DNA of 64,000 nt from Chloroflexota bacterium (GTDB lineage: Bacteria; Chloroflexota; Limnocylindria; Limnocylindrales; CSP1-4), in assembly GCA_003158295.1 (NCBI GenBank), contig PMIP01000084.1, positions 48,992 to 112,991 of the forward strand, given 5' to 3'. The translations under genes were made by a program, and so were the position numbers. Positions 5,387 through 64,000 of this stretch are shown here, in pieces. Position 1 is the first letter of the stretch; each line of letters begins with the position of its first letter. The notes beneath the pieces were generated by a model that saw only the letters and a program-made list of their open reading frames with translations, was not told the origin of the DNA and ran no database searches.

Positions 5387-5527
5387 GGCATCAGGCTAGC
5401 AGCGACGCGTGGACGACGCCTCGAAGGAACGGTTCCGCATCGCCGGCCGCGACGACCGCGTCGCAATCGGGCGTGCCGGCCTGTGGCGCGCGGCGGTGTT
5501 AGGATCGTGGCAATCGAATACGCCTCC

Positions 5528-5612
5528 GGGGAGCGCCCAGGGCGCTGAGAGTGCGGCTTCAGCCGCAGACCCGCCGTACCTGATCTGGACAATACCAGCG
5601 AAGGAAGCAGGC
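5528..5612 (+). promoter_or_regulatory. TPP (THI-box) riboswitch in the thiD leader
   Basis: GGGGAGCGCCCAGGGCGCUGAGAGUGCGGCUUCAGCCGCAGACCCGCCGUACCUGAUCUGGACAAUACCAGCGAAGGAAG contains the conserved CUGAGA, ACCC and ACCUGAUCUGGAUAAUACCAGCGAAGGGA-type elements, about 65 nt upstream of the thiD start. Confidence 0.85.
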
Positions 5613-5674
5613 TCCGACCACTCCTCGCCGCACTCCCCGCGGAGCGCGGCGAAGTCTGTCTTGAGAGGTCGAAG

Positions 5675-8989: not shown

Positions 8990-10336
8990 TTGGCCGGGCC
9001 AGCGCAACCGCTCGGTGTGCCGCGGGACGACCTTGGTGCGGCGACGGTCGGCGTCGAGCCGGTGCCGGCACGCTTCCGCGTGCTCGGTTTCCTCGACTAC
9101 TTCGTCCTGTGGGCCGATCTTGGGGTGGGGCTGCTGGTCCTGGCCGCCGGATCGTATCTGGTGCCGGGGCTTGGGTTGCCCCAGGCGCTCGCGGCCATCG
9201 TTCTGGGCACGGCCGCTGGCAACCTCATGCTGGGCCTGGCCGGAGTCATCGGCAGCGAGCACGGCGTCCCGTCCATGGTCAGCCTCCGGCCGAGCTTCGG
9301 CCGGCGCGGCAGCTACCTGCCGAGCCTGATCAACGTCGTTCAGCTCGTCGGCTGGGGCGCCTTCGAGATAGTCATCATGGCCCAGGCTTCGTCGCGGTTG
9401 AGCGGCCCGATCCTGGGCCTCGCCAGCTACCCGATCTGGACGGTGGGCTGGGCTGCGATCGTCATCCTGATGGCCCTGGGCGGGCCACTCGTCGTGGTCA
9501 GGCAGTGGCTGGAGAAGATCGGCATCTGGCTCGTCCTGCTCACGATCTCGTGGATTGCGGTCTATGCCCTGACGCGAGGCAATCTAGGTTCCATCTGGGC
9601 CCGGCCCGGAGACGGCAGCCTCGGCTTCGCCCAGGCGATCGATCTCGTTGTGGCGATGCCGATCAGCTGGCTGCCGCTCGTAGCGGACTTCAACCGTTTC
9701 GCGAAGGACTCCCGGTCGTCCTTCGCGGGAACCGTGGCCGGGTTCGCCGTCGCCAACGTGATGTGCTACGCCCTGGGCGCGCTTCTTATCCTGGTCCTCC
9801 CCTCGACAGACCTCGTCGGCTCGATCATGACCGTGGCCTTCGGTGCGGCGGGCCTGGCGCTACTGCTCGGCGACGAGACAGACAACGCCTTCGCCGACGT
9901 GTACTCGAGCGCCATTTCGATCAAGAACGTGGTTCCCGGCCTGTCGACGCGTGCCCTGGTGGCGGCGGTTGGCGGAACGTGTCTTGCCCTCGCGCTGACC
10001 GTCGATCTGGCCAGCTTCCAGGGGTTCCTGTACCTGGTTGGATCGCTGATCACGCCGCTCTTCGGGGTTCTCTTCGCCGACTACTTCCTGCTGCGCCGGC
10101 GGCGCTACACGAGCGAGGAGCTGTATCCGCTCGAGCTTGGAGGCCAGCTGCCCTGGGGCGCGAATCCGATCGCCCTGCTCGCCTGGGCGGCCGGTGTGGG
10201 GGCATACCTGGTCGAGACGACCTACGTGCACTGGCTGGGCGGGACGTTGCCGTCGCTGGGCGCCTCGATGGCGGCATATCTCCTGATGAGCCTGGCGATC
10301 AAGGGTGCCCGCCCGCCGCATGAGACGACGACGTAG
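8990..10336 (+). CDS. cytX: NCS1-family permease, putative hydroxymethylpyrimidine/thiamine-precursor transporter (CytX-like)
   Basis: 448 aa with about 12 TM segments and a cytosine/purine/allantoin permease-like sequence. Last gene of the TPP-riboswitch operon. Confidence 0.7.
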   Translation: MAGPAQPLGVPRDDLGAATVGVEPVPARFRVLGFLDYFVLWADLGVGLLVLAAGSYLVPGLGLPQALAAIVLGTAAGNLMLGLAGVIGSEHGVPSMVSLRPSFGRRGSYLPSLINVVQLVGWGAFEIVIMAQASSRLSGPILGLASYPIWTVGWAAIVILMALGGPLVVVRQWLEKIGIWLVLLTISWIAVYALTRGNLGSIWARPGDGSLGFAQAIDLVVAMPISWLPLVADFNRFAKDSRSSFAGTVAGFAVANVMCYALGALLILVLPSTDLVGSIMTVAFGAAGLALLLGDETDNAFADVYSSAISIKNVVPGLSTRALVAAVGGTCLALALTVDLASFQGFLYLVGSLITPLFGVLFADYFLLRRRRYTSEELYPLELGGQLPWGANPIALLAWAAGVGAYLVETTYVHWLGGTLPSLGASMAAYLLMSLAIKGARPPHETTT

Positions 10337-10982
10337 CCCGATCGATACCGGAGGTTCCGAGGATTCGGTCGACCCACTCGGCCACCGAAGCTGCCGTCTC
10401 CACAGCTCCGGCCGCGGTGAGCTCTTCCGAGCGCGCCAGCATCGAAACGATCCCGACGCCTCGCACGCCGGTGGCGGAGGCCATACGCATGTCATCGAGC
10501 GCGTCCCCGACGTAGACGGCCTCCGCGGGTGCGCAGCCGCCCGCCAACTCGAGCGCGAGCAGGAGTGGCGCGGGGTGAGGCTTCCCGGCGGACGTGTCGT
10601 TGCCGTAGACGCGCACGGTCATCAGGTCGTCGATGCCCAAGCGGCGAAGTTGGGGCTCCACCTCGGCACGATCGCCGCCCGTTACCACACCCAGGGTGTA
10701 GCCGCCCATCACCAGCCTGGCCAAGGCTCCTTGGACGCCGTCGAAGGGCCGCGTCCGGTCGCTCCGGAACGTTTCTCTCCATACCTGGACGGCTTCCTCG
10801 GTCCGATCCCCCGGTATGCCGAGCGAGTCATACATGTGCCGCCAGTTGGGGGAGAAGGTGCGTCTGAAGATGGCCAGGTCGAACGGCACGCCGATCCTGC
10901 GGCAGATGGCCGCGTCGGTCTCGTAGAGGGCTCCGATGGAGTCGACGATCGTCCCGTCCCAGTCGAAGAGGATGGTCCGCAT
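10299..10982 (-). CDS. HAD-superfamily hydrolase (phosphoglycolate-phosphatase-like)
   Basis: Internal start MRTILFDWDGTIVDS (HAD motif I DxDGT). Motif IV GDALDD is also present. Confidence 0.75.
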   Translation of the reverse strand: MRTILFDWDGTIVDSIGALYETDAAICRRIGVPFDLAIFRRTFSPNWRHMYDSLGIPGDRTEEAVQVWRETFRSDRTRPFDGVQGALARLVMGGYTLGVVTGGDRAEVEPQLRRLGIDDLMTVRVYGNDTSAGKPHPAPLLLALELAGGCAPAEAVYVGDALDDMRMASATGVRGVGIVSMLARSEELTAAGAVETAASVAEWVDRILGTSGIDRATSSSHAAGGHP

Positions 10983-11182
10983 GGCAGTACATCCTACTGT
11001 CGGCAAATTGACACCGGGCCGATGCATCCAATTGCTTCCGTTCGTCGAATACACATATAGAGTGACCAGCGGGCCTCCTTTGGTTCCTCGACTCGAATTA
11101 CCGCGAAATCCCCTGTTCCGTCCTTCGGGAAAACCGATAACTCAGGTGCAGTTCAACTCGAACGCATGGTAGATTTCCAATC

Positions 11183-61251: not shown

Positions 61252-61713
61252 CTACCCGGCCGGGGTCGAGTGATCGAGCACCTTGTGTAGAAACAGGGCG
61301 CTATCCGGGCACGCTCCGGTGAACTCGGGAGAGCCACGGAGTTGCGCCGGGGCGGTGTCGCGCGCCATCAGCGAATAGCCCAGCCGCGGGAACCAGTCGC
61401 CGGCGGTCTCGGTGAGCAAGTAGAGCTGTCCGATGCCGAGGCTCGTGGCGGTGGCCTCCGCTTCGGCGACGAGACGGCGACCAAGACCGGTGTTCCGAAG
61501 GTGGGGCGCGACGCAGACCGACCGCAGCAGCCCGATCGAGCCATACGGCTCGACGGCGGCGCAGCCCACGATCTCGCGGTCGTCGGTTGCATCGAGTGCG
61601 ACGACGGCCGTCGTGGCCGCAAGCTCGAACCCGGCAGTCGGTAGGCCGCTGGCCTGCAGGAGGCTCTCGATGGCCGTCCGATCGGCCGTGTGGGCGCGTT
61701 CTATCGAGATCAT
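61252..61713 (-). CDS. GNAT-family N-acetyltransferase (ArsN-like, co-operonic with arsM)
   Basis: Acetyl-CoA motif A RNTGLGRRLV. ATGA overlap with arsM. Internal ATG at 61713 behind gggagga. Confidence 0.7.
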   Translation of the reverse strand: MISIERAHTADRTAIESLLQASGLPTAGFELAATTAVVALDATDDREIVGCAAVEPYGSIGLLRSVCVAPHLRNTGLGRRLVAEAEATATSLGIGQLYLLTETAGDWFPRLGYSLMARDTAPAQLRGSPEFTGACPDSALFLHKVLDHSTPAG

Positions 61714-62513
61714 CCGCAGCAAGCTCCTCCCGAGCGGCCCACGGCCGCGACGCCCGCAGGCGCGAGGTCGGCAGTCGAAGCCGCACCGGCCCCTACCGGC
61801 TTGGTCGCCTTGACGATGACACTGTACATGCGGTCGGCGACCTGATGGCTGACGGTCAGCGACACGTCGGCGAGCCCGACCTGCTCGAGCCCGGAGCGGA
61901 ACTCCGAGAAGGAGAGGGCGCCGGCGATGCAGCCGGTGTAGGTCCCCAGGGCGGCCCGCTCTTCGGCGGTCAGCGTGTCGTCGGCGACGATGTCCGTGAT
62001 GCCGATCCGGCCGCCGGGCCGCAGGACTCGCGCGATCTCGCGGAACACGGCGGGCTTGTCGGCGGCGAGGTTCACGACGCAGTTGCTGATGACGACGTCG
62101 ATCGAGGCGGCCGGCAATGGGATCGACTCGATCTGGCCCTTCAGCCACTCGACGTTGGTGGCCCCGGCCTGGGCTGCGTTGCGCTGGGCCAGGGTGAGCA
62201 TCTCATCGGTCATGTCCAGGCCGAAAGCGCGGCCGGTCGGGCCCACGCGGCGGGCCGAGAGCAGCACGTCGATGCCGCCGCCGGAGCCCAGATCCAGGAC
62301 CCGCTCTCCGTCGTGGAGATCCGCGACCATGATCGGATTGCCGCAGCCGAGCGAGGCCAGGACCGCCGCGTCGGGCAGCTCCTCGCGCTCGAGAGCCGAG
62401 TACAGGTTGCCGCCGTAATCGCCGCTGTCGCCGGAGCAGGACTCGTTGTTCAGTACGCTGAGGGCGGCTTCGCCGTAGTGCCGGCGAACGGTCTCGTGGA
62501 TCTGGTCGGTCAT
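61710..62513 (-). CDS. arsM: arsenite S-adenosylmethionine methyltransferase
   Basis: SAM motif VLDLGSGGGID. Conserved As(III)-binding cysteines (ESCSGD, NCVVNL, C-terminal CC). Internal start MTDQIHE at 62513. Confidence 0.8.
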   Translation of the reverse strand: MTDQIHETVRRHYGEAALSVLNNESCSGDSGDYGGNLYSALEREELPDAAVLASLGCGNPIMVADLHDGERVLDLGSGGGIDVLLSARRVGPTGRAFGLDMTDEMLTLAQRNAAQAGATNVEWLKGQIESIPLPAASIDVVISNCVVNLAADKPAVFREIARVLRPGGRIGITDIVADDTLTAEERAALGTYTGCIAGALSFSEFRSGLEQVGLADVSLTVSHQVADRMYSVIVKATKPVGAGAASTADLAPAGVAAVGRSGGACCG

Positions 62514-62735
62514 CGGATCGCCCTCAGCAAGCGCAGGTGGAGGGGGTGGTGCGGCTGGAGAAGAGACGGTCGACAATGCCGGAGAACCGAGACGGTCGTG
62601 CGGGTGTCCGGTGGGAGTGCTGCCGGCGAGCTTCGGTGGCCTCGCGGAGGCGTTCCTCCGTCAGTAGCTTCACAAGTCTTGGACTGTAGTAGAGGGACAT
62701 CGTTGGCTCCTTTCGGAGCGGACCCTAAGACATTC

Positions 62736-62753
62736 ATTGATACTTGTCAATAT
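62736..62753. promoter_or_regulatory. imperfect inverted repeat ATTGATAC-TTGTCAAT in the arsM/arsR divergent promoter region; candidate ArsR operator
   Basis: Sits in a locally AT-richer 250-bp divergent intergenic region. Confidence 0.35.
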
Positions 62754-62778
62754 CCATTCGTGTCGATATGATGCGGTC

Positions 62779-63117
62779 ATGAGGCGCCAGACAGACCCGG
62801 ACGTCCTGCTTCTCCAGGCCGCCGCCGACCCGACCAGGCTGGCCATCTTGCGCCAGCTCAGCACGGACGGGGAGGTCTGCGCCTGCGACTTCACAGCCTG
62901 CTGCGACGTCGCCCAGCCGACCATCTCGCACCATCTGAAGGTTCTACGTGAGTCGGGCTGGGTTACTAGCGAGCGCCGGGGGACCTGGATCTGGTACTCG
63001 ATCTGCCCGGATGCGGTGACGCGGTTCCGGGGGATGGCCGGGGAGATCTCGCCCGGCGCCCCCCGCCCCGCTACCGTGCTTGCCGCCGCGCTGAGCGCTC
63101 CAGCCCCAGCCCGATAG
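62779..63117 (+). CDS. arsR: ArsR/SmtB-family metalloregulator
   Basis: HTH with the As(III)-binding EVCACDF motif ahead of the recognition helix. Confidence 0.8.
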   Translation: MRRQTDPDVLLLQAAADPTRLAILRQLSTDGEVCACDFTACCDVAQPTISHHLKVLRESGWVTSERRGTWIWYSICPDAVTRFRGMAGEISPGAPRPATVLAAALSAPAPAR

Positions 63118-63204
63118 ACACGGCCGCCGTCCACCTCGAGTCGGATCGTCTCCTGCGCAGGCCCAGGCCGAGTACCTCGGCAGGCGCGCCGCAATCGGGA
63201 CCCC

Positions 63205-63235
63205 TTGACCTTCAAGTAACTTGAAGGTGTAGGGT
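63205..63235 (+). promoter_or_regulatory. MerR-type promoter: -35 TTGACC, 19-bp spacer containing the perfect palindrome CCTTCAAGT-A-ACTTGAAGG, -10 TAGGGT
   Basis: The 19-bp spacer with a dyad operator between -35 and -10 is diagnostic of MerR-family-controlled promoters. Lies 7 nt upstream of the fusion-gene RBS and ATG. Confidence 0.6.
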
Positions 63236-63241
63236 GGGGTT

Positions 63242-64000
63242 ATGAAGGTCGCCGAGCTCGCCAGACGCGCCGGAGTGGCCCCGTCGGCCGTGCGGTTCTA
63301 TGAGGAGACGGGCGTTCTGCCGCCCGCGGCCCGCCTCGTCAACGGCTACCGCGAGTTCGACGCCACCGATCTGGCGCGGCTGCGCCTGGTCGTGGTCCTG
63401 CGACGGCTCGGGCTCGCGCCAGTGGATGCCGGACGGCTCGCGGCGCTGTGCATGGAGCGGGGCCGGATCGACACCGATCTGGCGCCGATGATCGCCGCCC
63501 AACGCGCCGCCATCGAGGGTCAGCGGGCCGATCTCGATCGTTTGTATTCAGAGTTAACAGACCTGGAGTTGACTATCGAGGCCGCCGGCCGTGCCCGGCG
63601 CACAAGCAAGGAAACAGCCATGTCCGCTGATCCGATCCGCGTCCTCTTCGTCTGCACCGGCAATTCGGCCCGCAGTCAGATCGCCGAAGCCCTGCTCAAG
63701 GATTTCGGTGCCTCCGACTTCGCCGTCTTCTCGGCGGGGACGGCGCCACAAGGCGTTAGTCCAGACACCGTGCGCGTCCTGGGCGAGATCGGGATCGACT
63801 GGTCCGGCGCCCAGGCCAAGTCCGTAACCGGGTTCGTGGGCCAGCCGTTCGACTACGTGATCACCGTCTGCGACCGGGCTCGCCAGACCTGCCCGGTCTT
63901 CCCGGGCCAGCACAACTCGCTCCATTGGGGTCTGGACGATCCGGCCGACGTCGACGGCACCGACGCGGAAAAGCTGGAAGCGTTTCGACGGACCCGCACC
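63242..64000 (+). CDS. arsC: fusion protein: N-terminal MerR-family HTH regulator domain plus C-terminal LMW-PTP-type arsenate reductase (ArsC); 3-prime end truncated by the window
   Basis: MKVAELARRAGVAPSAVRFYEETGVLPP (MerR HTH) plus coiled coil. Then, in the same frame with no stop, MSADPIRVLFVCTGNSARSQ (CX5R P-loop of LMW-PTP ArsC). My manual translation finds no stop through 64000. Absent from the ORF track, apparently because the frame has no stop before the window end. Confidence 0.7.
   Translation, partial: MKVAELARRAGVAPSAVRFYEETGVLPPAARLVNGYREFDATDLARLRLVVVLRRLGLAPVDAGRLAALCMERGRIDTDLAPMIAAQRAAIEGQRADLDRLYSELTDLELTIEAAGRARRTSKETAMSADPIRVLFVCTGNSARSQIAEALLKDFGASDFAVFSAGTAPQGVSPDTVRVLGEIGIDWSGAQAKSVTGFVGQPFDYVITVCDRARQTCPVFPGQHNSLHWGLDDPADVDGTDAEKLEAFRRTRT

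Follow-up and report, generated by a model that had tools for sequence, protein, structure and literature searches.

Activators of the MerR family bind as dimers to a dyad located in a mis-spaced promoter, and realign that promoter when their effector domain is engaged. To our knowledge, the known cytoplasmic arsenic sensors, those of the ArsR family, detect trivalent arsenic, and arsenate is sensed only indirectly or via periplasmic binding proteins. In Sinorhizobium meliloti, arsenate detoxification relies on an arsenate reductase (ArsC) combined with the aquaglyceroporin AqpS, and the regulation is by ArsR. Closest in logic to the gene treated here is the tipA system of Streptomyces lividans, in which translation from alternative starts yields the activator TipAL as well as TipAS, an abundant protein that binds the ligand, one gene thus being sensor, activator and neutraliser (PMC7762955). 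Here we describe merR-arsC, a gene located at the end of a 64,000-nucleotide stretch of a Chloroflexota bacterium genome (assembly GCA_003158295.1, contig PMIP01000084.1, positions 48,992 to 112,991 of the forward strand; the whole stretch is called the window below and its own numbering is used), in which a MerR-type regulator and an arsenate reductase are encoded in a single frame.

The reading we hold to be the most probable, albeit with some reserve, is that merR-arsC constitutes a one-gene arsenate module: a CueR-like MerR regulator and a thioredoxin-coupled ArsC, controlled by an operator of its own and giving two products. Judged from its sequence, the fusion would probably be a self-activating arsenate sensor which also supplies the detoxifying enzyme. 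With the TipA class (also AlbA/AlbAS) it shares the MerR helix-turn-helix (HTH) followed by a coiled coil and a C-terminal effector domain, the MerR-type promoter in front of its own gene, and, by prediction for merR-arsC, the use of alternative starts. It differs in that the effector is an ArsC enzyme of the low-molecular-weight protein tyrosine phosphatase (LMW-PTP) fold and not the antibiotic-binding TipAS domain (PF07739), and in that the neutraliser would be catalytic instead of sequestering, the two products being predicted ones here. No TipAS domain was found in the fusion protein by the Pfam scan, and the likeness to the TipA class is one of logic only, not of membership.

The MerR-ArsC Fusion Protein

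The open reading frame (ORF) and the regions of its N-terminal part are the following.

63242-64000, plus strand: merR-arsC fusion ORF, codons 1-253 of 281; the start codon coincides with the putative +1 of a leaderless mRNA
63242-63418, plus strand: MerR winged HTH, residues 1-59 (Pfam MerR_1, E 3e-14; MerR, E 2e-12), with model helices at residues 3-10, 14-22 and 41-55
63467-63613, plus strand: dimerisation (coiled-coil) helix, residues 76-124, a single helix in the AlphaFold2 (AF2) model that aligns to the dimerisation helix of CueR
63587-63634, plus strand: inter-domain linker, residues 116-131 (GRARRTSKETAMSADP), at the position of the CueR metal-binding loop; predicted local distance difference test score (pLDDT) below 50 at residues 123-127

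An earlier note, made from the letters of the window alone, had described one frame leading from a MerR HTH through a coiled coil into a complete LMW-PTP ArsC active site, and this is borne out by the ORF, the domain matches and the alignments. The frame is free of stops from the ATG at 63242-63244 to base 64000 (253 codons). Upstream of this ATG the nearest in-frame stop is a TAG within the -10 hexamer, and direct reading of the sequence revealed no alternative start codon between the two. The window ends before the gene does: as the note had proposed, the C-terminus was sought beyond the window, and it lies 28 codons further on, the identical full-length protein (P0001) having 281 residues.

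The Pfam scan places MerR/MerR_1 at residues 1-59 (E 3e-14), a weak MerR-DNA-bind match at residues 44-108 and LMWPc at residues 134-246 (E 2e-17). Both HTH models score well above their cut-offs over residues 1-59 (PF13411, 53 bits against 21.6; PF00376, 47 bits against 28.2), and the long dimerisation helix characteristic of the MerR family is predicted at residues 76-124. Among the NCBIfam models the top matches are the thioredoxin-coupled ArsC of the pI258 type for the C-terminal half (1e-31) and CueR for the N-terminal half (1e-13), and CueR was also retrieved by Foldseek with the N-terminal half. The AF2 monomer model (pLDDT 82.7) consists of the HTH with its wing, the helix 76-124, a low-confidence linker (residues 123-131) and the ArsC domain, whose first strand leads directly to the catalytic P-loop. 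The linker carries the motif AAGR, which is conserved in the family.

Residues 1-105 of Escherichia coli CueR align to the N-terminal part without gaps, and continuing this ungapped alignment, the metal-binding loop C112-C120 of CueR corresponds to I112-R120, which contains no cysteine at all. The position of CueR S77 is occupied by an aspartate, D77, invariant in the fusion family. Cys70 was considered as a metal or thiol ligand comparable to MerR C79 or CueR S77 and was dropped, as it aligns to F70 of CueR and is probably part of the core. The CueR/ZntR/MerR/CadR-PbrR proteins thus provide the best N-terminal match and share the dyad in a 19-bp spacer with half-sites of the type ACCTTC...GAAGGT, but the fusion lacks the Cys-x7-Cys loop, has D77 in place of S77, and carries a linker and an enzyme domain of 140 residues instead. 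The cysteines of the loop (C112/C120) and the Ser/Cys at positions 77/79 that define the CueR subgroup are missing, and the equivalog scores of NCBIfam are far below the cut-off; the sequence therefore places the fusion as the nearest relative of the CueR metal-sensor subgroup and not as a member. A linker of approximately 8-15 residues tethers the ArsC domain at the point of the CueR metal loop. As the loop positions are devoid of cysteines and ArsC starts there, the enzyme domain hangs where the metal-sensing relatives have their receptor.

Occurrence of the Fusion

The earlier note had advised looking for a frameshift or a stop separating a small merR from arsC. The probability that the ORF arose in this way, as an artefact of sequencing or assembly, is close to nil. 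The identical 281-residue protein P0001 is present on 29 contigs; those from a metagenome-assembled genome at NCBI (GCA_003158575.1), from a JGI metagenome and from two ENA assemblies do not differ in the neighbours of the gene. All of the 120 best homologues (76-100% identity), and likewise 119 others obtained with a distant query, combine MerR and LMWPc in 270-301 residues, and the AAGR motif of the linker is conserved. Nothing was found in favour of an artefact, the window merely stopping before the stop codon of the gene, and an assembly-specific frameshift or lost stop is excluded for practical purposes by the identical protein and the architecture conserved across assemblies and species.

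The homology search which the note had suggested yielded more than 230 related proteins of the MerR-ArsC architecture, and every named one comes from Chloroflexota (Limnocylindria). When one genome per GTDB species was scanned, full-length matches were obtained in 11 species, all of them Chloroflexota and several labelled Candidatus Limnocylindrales. Further GTDB matches, in Comamonadaceae and others, began only at residues 70-108; extension of the frames revealed a stand-alone ArsC or an arsR in another frame, and these candidates were rejected. Among the 50%-identity representatives of 15 billion proteins, MerR-ArsC forms a few clusters only, and the N-extended ArsCs found there are mostly ArsR-ArsC, ArsC-ArsC or ArsN-ArsC. 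The fusion is thus genuine and lineage-conserved in soil and peat Chloroflexota.

The proteins are already public under generic names such as "arsenate reductase" or "MerR family transcriptional regulator". Full-text literature searches (MerR-ArsC; MerR/arsenate reductase fusion; Limnocylindria and arsenic) returned no description of the architecture, and structure searches, including Foldseek, no solved structure in which MerR and ArsC domains are joined. We rate the protein as a MerR regulator with an enzyme as its receptor, organised like TipA, and the architecture as previously uncharacterised.

Promoter and Operator

Immediately upstream of the gene the following elements can be read.

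63205-63210, plus strand: -35 hexamer TTGACC, read directly; TTGAC[C/A] in 14 of 14 orthologous loci
63208-63228: perfect 10-1-10 dyad operator ACCTTCAAGT-A-ACTTGAAGGT, which overlaps the -35 hexamer and fills the 19-bp spacer
63230-63235, plus strand: -10 hexamer TAGGGT, 19 nt after the -35 hexamer and 6 nt before the ATG; TAnnnT equally spaced in the 14 orthologues

The promoter was described in the earlier note as a textbook MerR-type one with 19-bp spacing, which is accurate, and the palindrome as a perfect 9-1-9 repeat; it is indeed perfect, although one pair longer (10-1-10). Allowing up to 3 mismatches, the dyad matches the window only once, and no match was obtained in 100 shuffles. 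The over-long spacer and the dyad operator within it are those expected of the MerR family from sequence.

The promoter was compared in the 14 orthologous loci examined first, which range from 67 to 100% in protein identity. In all of them CTTGAC[C/A]TTCAAGnnnCTTGAAGGTnTAnnnT is present, CTTGACCTTCAAGTnACTTGAAGGTGTAnnnT is kept and the 19-bp spacer is retained, and beyond approximately 40 nt upstream of the start the DNA of these loci is unalignable. Operator and gene are therefore conserved together. The symmetry itself is also maintained: pairs 2-10 of the dyad are complementary in 17-22 of 22 sites, and in four sites both members of pair 4 are exchanged (A:T against G:C), a compensatory change.

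A pattern scan of metagenomes, made with the start-codon position forced to C/T, placed this conservation in a broader frame. ACCTTC-N9-GAAGGT inside a 19-bp spacer turned out to be the generic design of CueR-like merR genes, and mostly other small CueR-like merR promoters were returned, with half-sites TTCCAG..CTGGAA. To the family itself the scan added only the locus L127 (L and P numbers are our handles for loci and proteins), two variants with an upstream ORF (uORF) and deletion remnants.

The ArsC Domain

The C-terminal half contains the elements listed below.

63635-64000, plus strand: thioredoxin-type ArsC of the LMW-PTP fold, residues 132-253 in the window (LMWPc, E 2e-17); the domain ends near residue 270
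63653-63676, plus strand: catalytic P-loop C138-T-G-N-S-A-R-S145 (CX5R), invariant in the family alignment
63869-63892, plus strand: resolving cysteines C210...C217 (VCDRARQTC), equivalent to C82/C89 of pI258 ArsC
63935-63943, plus strand: D232-D233-P234 of the HWGLDDP motif, the region of the general-acid Asp according to the alignment

The active site is complete when judged against the ArsCs of Bacillus subtilis and Staphylococcus aureus (1jl3, 1ljl), with which C138TGNSARS145, C210, C217 and D232-D233-P234 align. C138, C210 and C217 are all kept in 227 of the 230 family members, which indicates that catalysis is under selection, and R144 and the DDP motif are invariant. In Foldseek searches with the C-terminal half the top matches were Deinococcus indicus ArsC2 and the ArsCs of B. 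subtilis and S. aureus (pI258). The domain resembles these three reductases in the CX5R loop, the resolving cysteines 7 apart and the DDP motif, at 33-46% identity, TM approximately 0.9 and a root-mean-square deviation of 1.2-2 Å. It differs from stand-alone ArsCs in being fused behind a DNA-binding domain and in its score with TIGR02691 (116 against 174 bits), and its activity is a predicted one.

ArsC domains with N-terminal partners have been met before in ArsR-ArsC, ArsN-ArsC and tandem ArsC-ArsC proteins (a winged HTH or a three-helix bundle plus LMWPc), where a regulatory or accessory domain likewise precedes the same ArsC fold; one such N-extended ArsC adjoins merR-arsC in L082. The partner there is a repressor fold of the ArsR/SmtB type or a dimerisation bundle, and here it is a MerR-type activator whose gene has a 19-bp-spacer promoter to itself, so that activation, and not de-repression, is implied.

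Three members of the family, P0124, P0271 and P0272, form a cysteine-less clade. They share the P-loop SNFNAARG, P0271 and P0272 being 61-65% identical to P0124. In the two for which the DNA is readable (P0271 and P0272), the 19-bp-spacer promoter is kept and the start codon follows the -10 hexamer by 6-7 nt. Both are found outside arsenic clusters, and P0271 adjoins a TauE/SafE anion permease. As this clade retains the ArsC domain without its chemistry, together with the same DNA-binding module and promoter, the simplest explanation is that the domain is the ligand-sensing part. From sequence, the clade fits a sensing role for ArsC, and the cysteine-less proteins may be oxyanion sensors built on a dead enzyme. 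The loci of the clade are L207 (5001-8177) and L209 (4001-4867); in L207 genes for a cupredoxin and for a P-type ATPase lie upstream, and downstream there are those for TauE/SafE, DUF1634 and a Na/Ca exchanger.

Predicted Leaderless mRNA and Internal Start

Of the 14 orthologues only L013 has 7 nt between the -10 hexamer and the start codon (ATG or GTG); the other 13 have 6 nt. The start codon thereby falls on the expected +1, which implies that the merR-arsC mRNA is leaderless, a prediction drawn from the promoter geometry. The same geometry is seen in the adjacent arsR, and 5-8 nt separate the two elements in many small CueR-like merR genes of metagenomes. The arsR gene has no Shine-Dalgarno (SD) sequence (SD energy +0.3) and looks leaderless too. 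In L112, L122 and L160 the -10 hexamer is followed, at 7 nt, by a short leaderless uORF (approximately 13-25 codons) whose TGA overlaps the GTG of merR-arsC (GTGA), suggesting translational coupling in place of a leaderless main ORF in these loci.

A second start site appears at the junction of the two domains.

63608-63613, plus strand: internal SD-like AAGGAA, 6 nt upstream of the internal ATG
63620-63622, plus strand: internal in-frame ATG (M127), the putative start of a free ArsC of 155 residues

M127 occupies the position of the N-terminus of stand-alone ArsCs in the alignment. Exactly four codons before PIRV, which begins the first ArsC strand, ATG is found in 12 and GTG in 2 of the 14 orthologues, and in all 14 a purine run of the GGA/GAGG type precedes it by 6-9 nt, despite the different residues encoded there (KE, EG, ED, KG, EA, RG and others). 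Orthologues of as little as 67% identity still have the internal start and the SD-like core, with the linker residues varying around them. The pairing energy with the anti-SD at the internal site is from -3.5 to -10.8 kcal/mol, compared to a mean of approximately -2.4 over all positions of the same genes; these values lie in the low tail of the background of each gene and do not fall outside those obtained for annotated starts of the contigs concerned. In the whole family, a methionine is located within 7 residues of PIRV in 152 of 230 members, compared to a Met share of 1.1% overall; Val alone occurs there in 70 members, and in 8 neither residue is present. Among the 8 are all three of the scored proteins whose catalytic site is degenerate, and in P0124 and P0271 there is no M or V before the first ArsC strand.

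Taken from sequence, the internal SD and start at M127 would probably also yield the free 155-residue ArsC, and by analogy with TipAL/TipAS the conserved internal start suggests two products from one gene.

Arsenic Genes and the Candidate Regulon

Upstream of merR-arsC, two arsenic-related transcription units are recognised in the window.

62779-63117, plus strand: arsR, 112 residues with a CxC + CC cysteine cluster, directly upstream of merR-arsC (HTH_5, 8e-14; NF033788, 3e-25)
62744-62772, plus strand: arsR promoter TTGTCA-17-TATGAT, of the sigma-70 type (10 of 12), ending 6 nt before the arsR ATG
61252-62700, minus strand: divergent arsenic operon with a small ORF (62524-62700), arsM (61710-62576) and arsN2 (61252-61713)

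The scores of ArsM (NF008823, 269 bits) and ArsN2 (NF040501, 132.5 bits against a cut-off of 125) are above the respective cut-offs. The arrangement is typical of the clade to which the window belongs, with arsR immediately upstream on the same strand (also in L005, L006, L007, L009 and L085) and the small ORF, arsM, arsN2 and sometimes arsP divergent from it. In relatives, the neighbours include genes for the arsenite pump ACR3, for aquaglyceroporins of the MIP family and for ArsP. The genomic context is consistently arsenic resistance.

Extra copies of the operator in sister genomes point to what else may be controlled by the fusion protein. In L011 a second copy of the promoter lies approximately 50 nt upstream of the ACR3 gene and has the same lineage-specific variant, TTCGAGC..GCTCGA, as the operator of merR-arsC in that genome. 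In L082 a second operator copy on the other strand faces a divergent operon of ArsC, a phosphodiesterase and MIP, and in L127 a single copy precedes a phosphodiesterase followed by merR-arsC. A MIP channel comes directly after merR-arsC in L010, L012 and L013, and an ACR3-like gene in L015. The combination with MIP resembles the AqpS pathway of S. meliloti, since reduction followed by downhill exit of arsenite would make a complete As(V)-specific pathway; unlike there, no such channel was found within the 64 kb of the window.

The phosphodiesterase is a YfcE-like metallophosphoesterase that neighbours merR-arsC in two lineages, in each behind the same operator (L082, 4409-5137, minus strand; L127, 243-1022, locus reverse-complemented); it might hydrolyse arsenate esters. 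Two loci look, by their sequence, like deletion derivatives of the merR-arsC module. In L017 (1705-1745) the MerR part is lost and a stand-alone arsC has kept the right operator half-site, the -10 hexamer and the 6-nt spacing, and in L147 (site 7173, locus reverse-complemented) an intact promoter is followed by an ATG fused to the last approximately 25 ArsC codons and then by an aquaglyceroporin.

Proposed Mode of Action and Alternatives

The earlier note read the protein as a self-regulating, substrate-sensing reductase. Given a genuine fusion, the co-occurring MerR-type promoter and operator and the arsenic context, this is a reasonable reading, in which we infer both the sensing and the regulation. 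A dimer would bind the ACCTTCAAG-N3-CTTGAAGGT dyad in the suboptimal promoter with its 19-bp spacer and, once the effector domain is occupied, remodel the mis-spaced promoter as other MerR activators do. The signal could be arsenate in the P-loop of ArsC, the ensuing Cys138 -> Cys210 -> Cys217 disulfide cascade, or both, with thioredoxin resetting the protein. Activation would produce more of the leaderless mRNA, the 5'-terminal AUG of which would give the full-length 281-residue sensor-activator, and the internal SD with the AUG at M127 the free ArsC enzyme; sensor, activator and neutraliser would thus come from one gene. The outcome would be positive autoregulation, extended to the exit routes of arsenite (ACR3, aquaglyceroporin) where these carry the operator in sister genomes. 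As(III) would be handled by the adjacent ArsR, the genome of the window having a separate ArsR-controlled unit for As(III) and methylation.

A number of observations weigh against this proposal. The predicted TM-score (pTM) of the AF2 monomer model is only 0.53, so that no reliable inter-domain contacts can be taken from it and the orientation of the domains is unreliable. The full ArsC domain obtains 116.4 bits with TIGR02691 (1e-33), below the equivalog cut-off of 174.3 bits, and is for this reason filed as an ArsC-like LMWPc and not as the equivalog. CueR-like regulators share this operator design in general, and cross-talk between the fusion and a copper regulator is therefore possible. 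The only operator copy in the window and 8 kb downstream of it is that of the gene itself, whose regulon may here be itself alone, and no arsenite exporter was found within the 64 kb. The adjacent ArsR already gives an arsenic-responsive input without any sensing by MerR. As for the internal start, the SD in the window is moderate (AAGGAA, -5.2 kcal/mol, approximately the 15th percentile of the gene background), and L127 has TTG and a weak SD at this site.

That last point bears on whether two products are made at all. Possibly only the 281-residue protein is produced, the methionine and the purine run at the junction being a functionless relic of the ancestral arsC start, and the mRNA may have a leader owing to read-through from arsR; we take this to be a real prospect, if clearly the lesser one. 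It would accommodate the moderate SD of the window, the 70 members with Val only and the 8 with neither residue, as well as the lack of a predicted terminator between arsR and merR-arsC. Against a relic speak, however, a start codon and an SD-like core kept to 67% identity amid freely changing linker residues, and a Met content far above background; in addition, the three scored proteins with degenerate catalytic sites all belong to the members that lack M and V. The nature of the signal is a separate matter. Arsenite, bound by the clustered ArsC cysteines as in ArsR, or a general thiol-redox state closing the C210-C217 disulfide, could be the effector in place of arsenate, which we judge rather unlikely. 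The almost invariant cysteines do lie close together in ArsC folds, trivalent arsenic is what all cytoplasmic arsenic sensors known to us detect, and thioredoxin-fold genes adjoin in L085 and L011. Yet with a CxC ArsR of the As(III) type immediately upstream a second As(III) sensor would be redundant, where an aquaglyceroporin shares the operon the As(V) pathway is complete, and the cysteine-less clade, which keeps the Arg/Asn scaffold of the P-loop and the promoter, speaks for oxyanion binding in the P-loop, as opposed to thiol chemistry, being able to suffice as a signal.

Less probable still is a fusion of the 'Rosetta-stone' kind that ensures co-expression only, the MerR part following some other cue and ArsC being a tethered enzyme with no sensory role. 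The MerR part lacks the Cys loop of CueR, ZntR and MerR and has no other C-terminal effector region, ArsC beginning at the very position of the loop. A passenger domain could well retain all its catalytic residues, and the flexible, low-confidence linker, the absence of a confident domain contact in the model and an internal start that would free the enzyme in any case all agree with it; its retention without chemistry, outside arsenic clusters, in the cysteine-less clade is hard to explain in that way. We therefore keep to the arsenate-responsive, self-activating module as the preferred reading. In its strongest form this would be the first cytoplasmic one-component As(V) sensor, with a reductase as the ligand module of a MerR protein, substrate binding or turnover coupled to promoter remodelling, a leaderless gene for both products and a derived oxyanion sensor in the cysteine-less clade; so much we put forward as tentative only.

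Should the proposal be true, a MerR activator with ArsC as its receptor would act as a switch that responds directly to As(V). It would also exemplify the recruitment of an enzyme to the role of MerR effector domain, and would be a second, independent case of the TipA design, in which sensor, activator and neutraliser reside in one gene. Chloroflexota metagenomes from peat and soil contain the family in abundance, and it would probably shape the handling of arsenic there. The unit of promoter and gene measures approximately 0.9 kb and could be of use in biosensors specific for arsenate.

Rare Codons and Other Features of the Region

One further feature lies within the gene.

63530-63577, plus strand: patch of low GC content at third codon positions (GC3), TTG TAT TCA GAG TTA ACA ... 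TTG ACT, within the dimerisation helix

The earlier note had remarked on atypical codons at the junction (63541-63600) and taken them as a sign that the linker is of recent origin or was acquired laterally. The codons are rare indeed, GC3 being 0.42 over residues 97-108 compared to 0.83 for the gene, but the patch is in the dimerisation helix, and the junction corresponds to residues 116-131 (approximately 63587-63634). The helix sequence DLDRL.SELTDLELTI is conserved family-wide, and L005 (93% identity), L007 (84%) and L082 (77%) have the TTG, TCA, TTA and ACT codons as well, which are absent in distant orthologues. Located in the conserved MerR helix and common to relatives, the patch is neither the junction nor a recent acquisition, and the acquired-linker interpretation is not supported; a function or cause for the patch was not found. 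It holds the near-repeat GAGTTAACAGAC / GAGTTGACTATC. An internal promoter in the AT-rich part (63540-63580) was considered and rejected, since by eye no -10-like hexamer is usably spaced from TTGACT or TTGTAT on either strand.

The small ORF between arsR and arsM (62524-62700, minus strand) encodes 58 residues here and 52-59 in relatives, beginning with MSLYYSPRLVKLLTEERLREA and ending in TCAC at the stop. Its N-terminus is conserved and the C-terminal Cys-x-Cys-stop is invariant in L002, L005, L006/L084, L007, L009 and L085/L086. No Pfam or NCBIfam match was obtained for it; its product may be a small protein that binds As(III) or MAs(III), and the ORF may open the arsM-arsN2 operon as its first gene.

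Terminator scans found none between arsR and merR-arsC, nor after merR-arsC in L001. In the latter locus, approximately 560 bp downstream of merR-arsC and past the window end, a protein of 525 residues is encoded (9406-10983, plus strand), for which no significant Pfam or NCBIfam family was found, only a faint Sulfatase match (E 0.003). There was no Rfam match in the merR-arsC region. Elsewhere in the window, a thiamine pyrophosphate (TPP) riboswitch (RF00059) is located at 5517-5624 on the plus strand, its 64.9 bits being above the gathering score.

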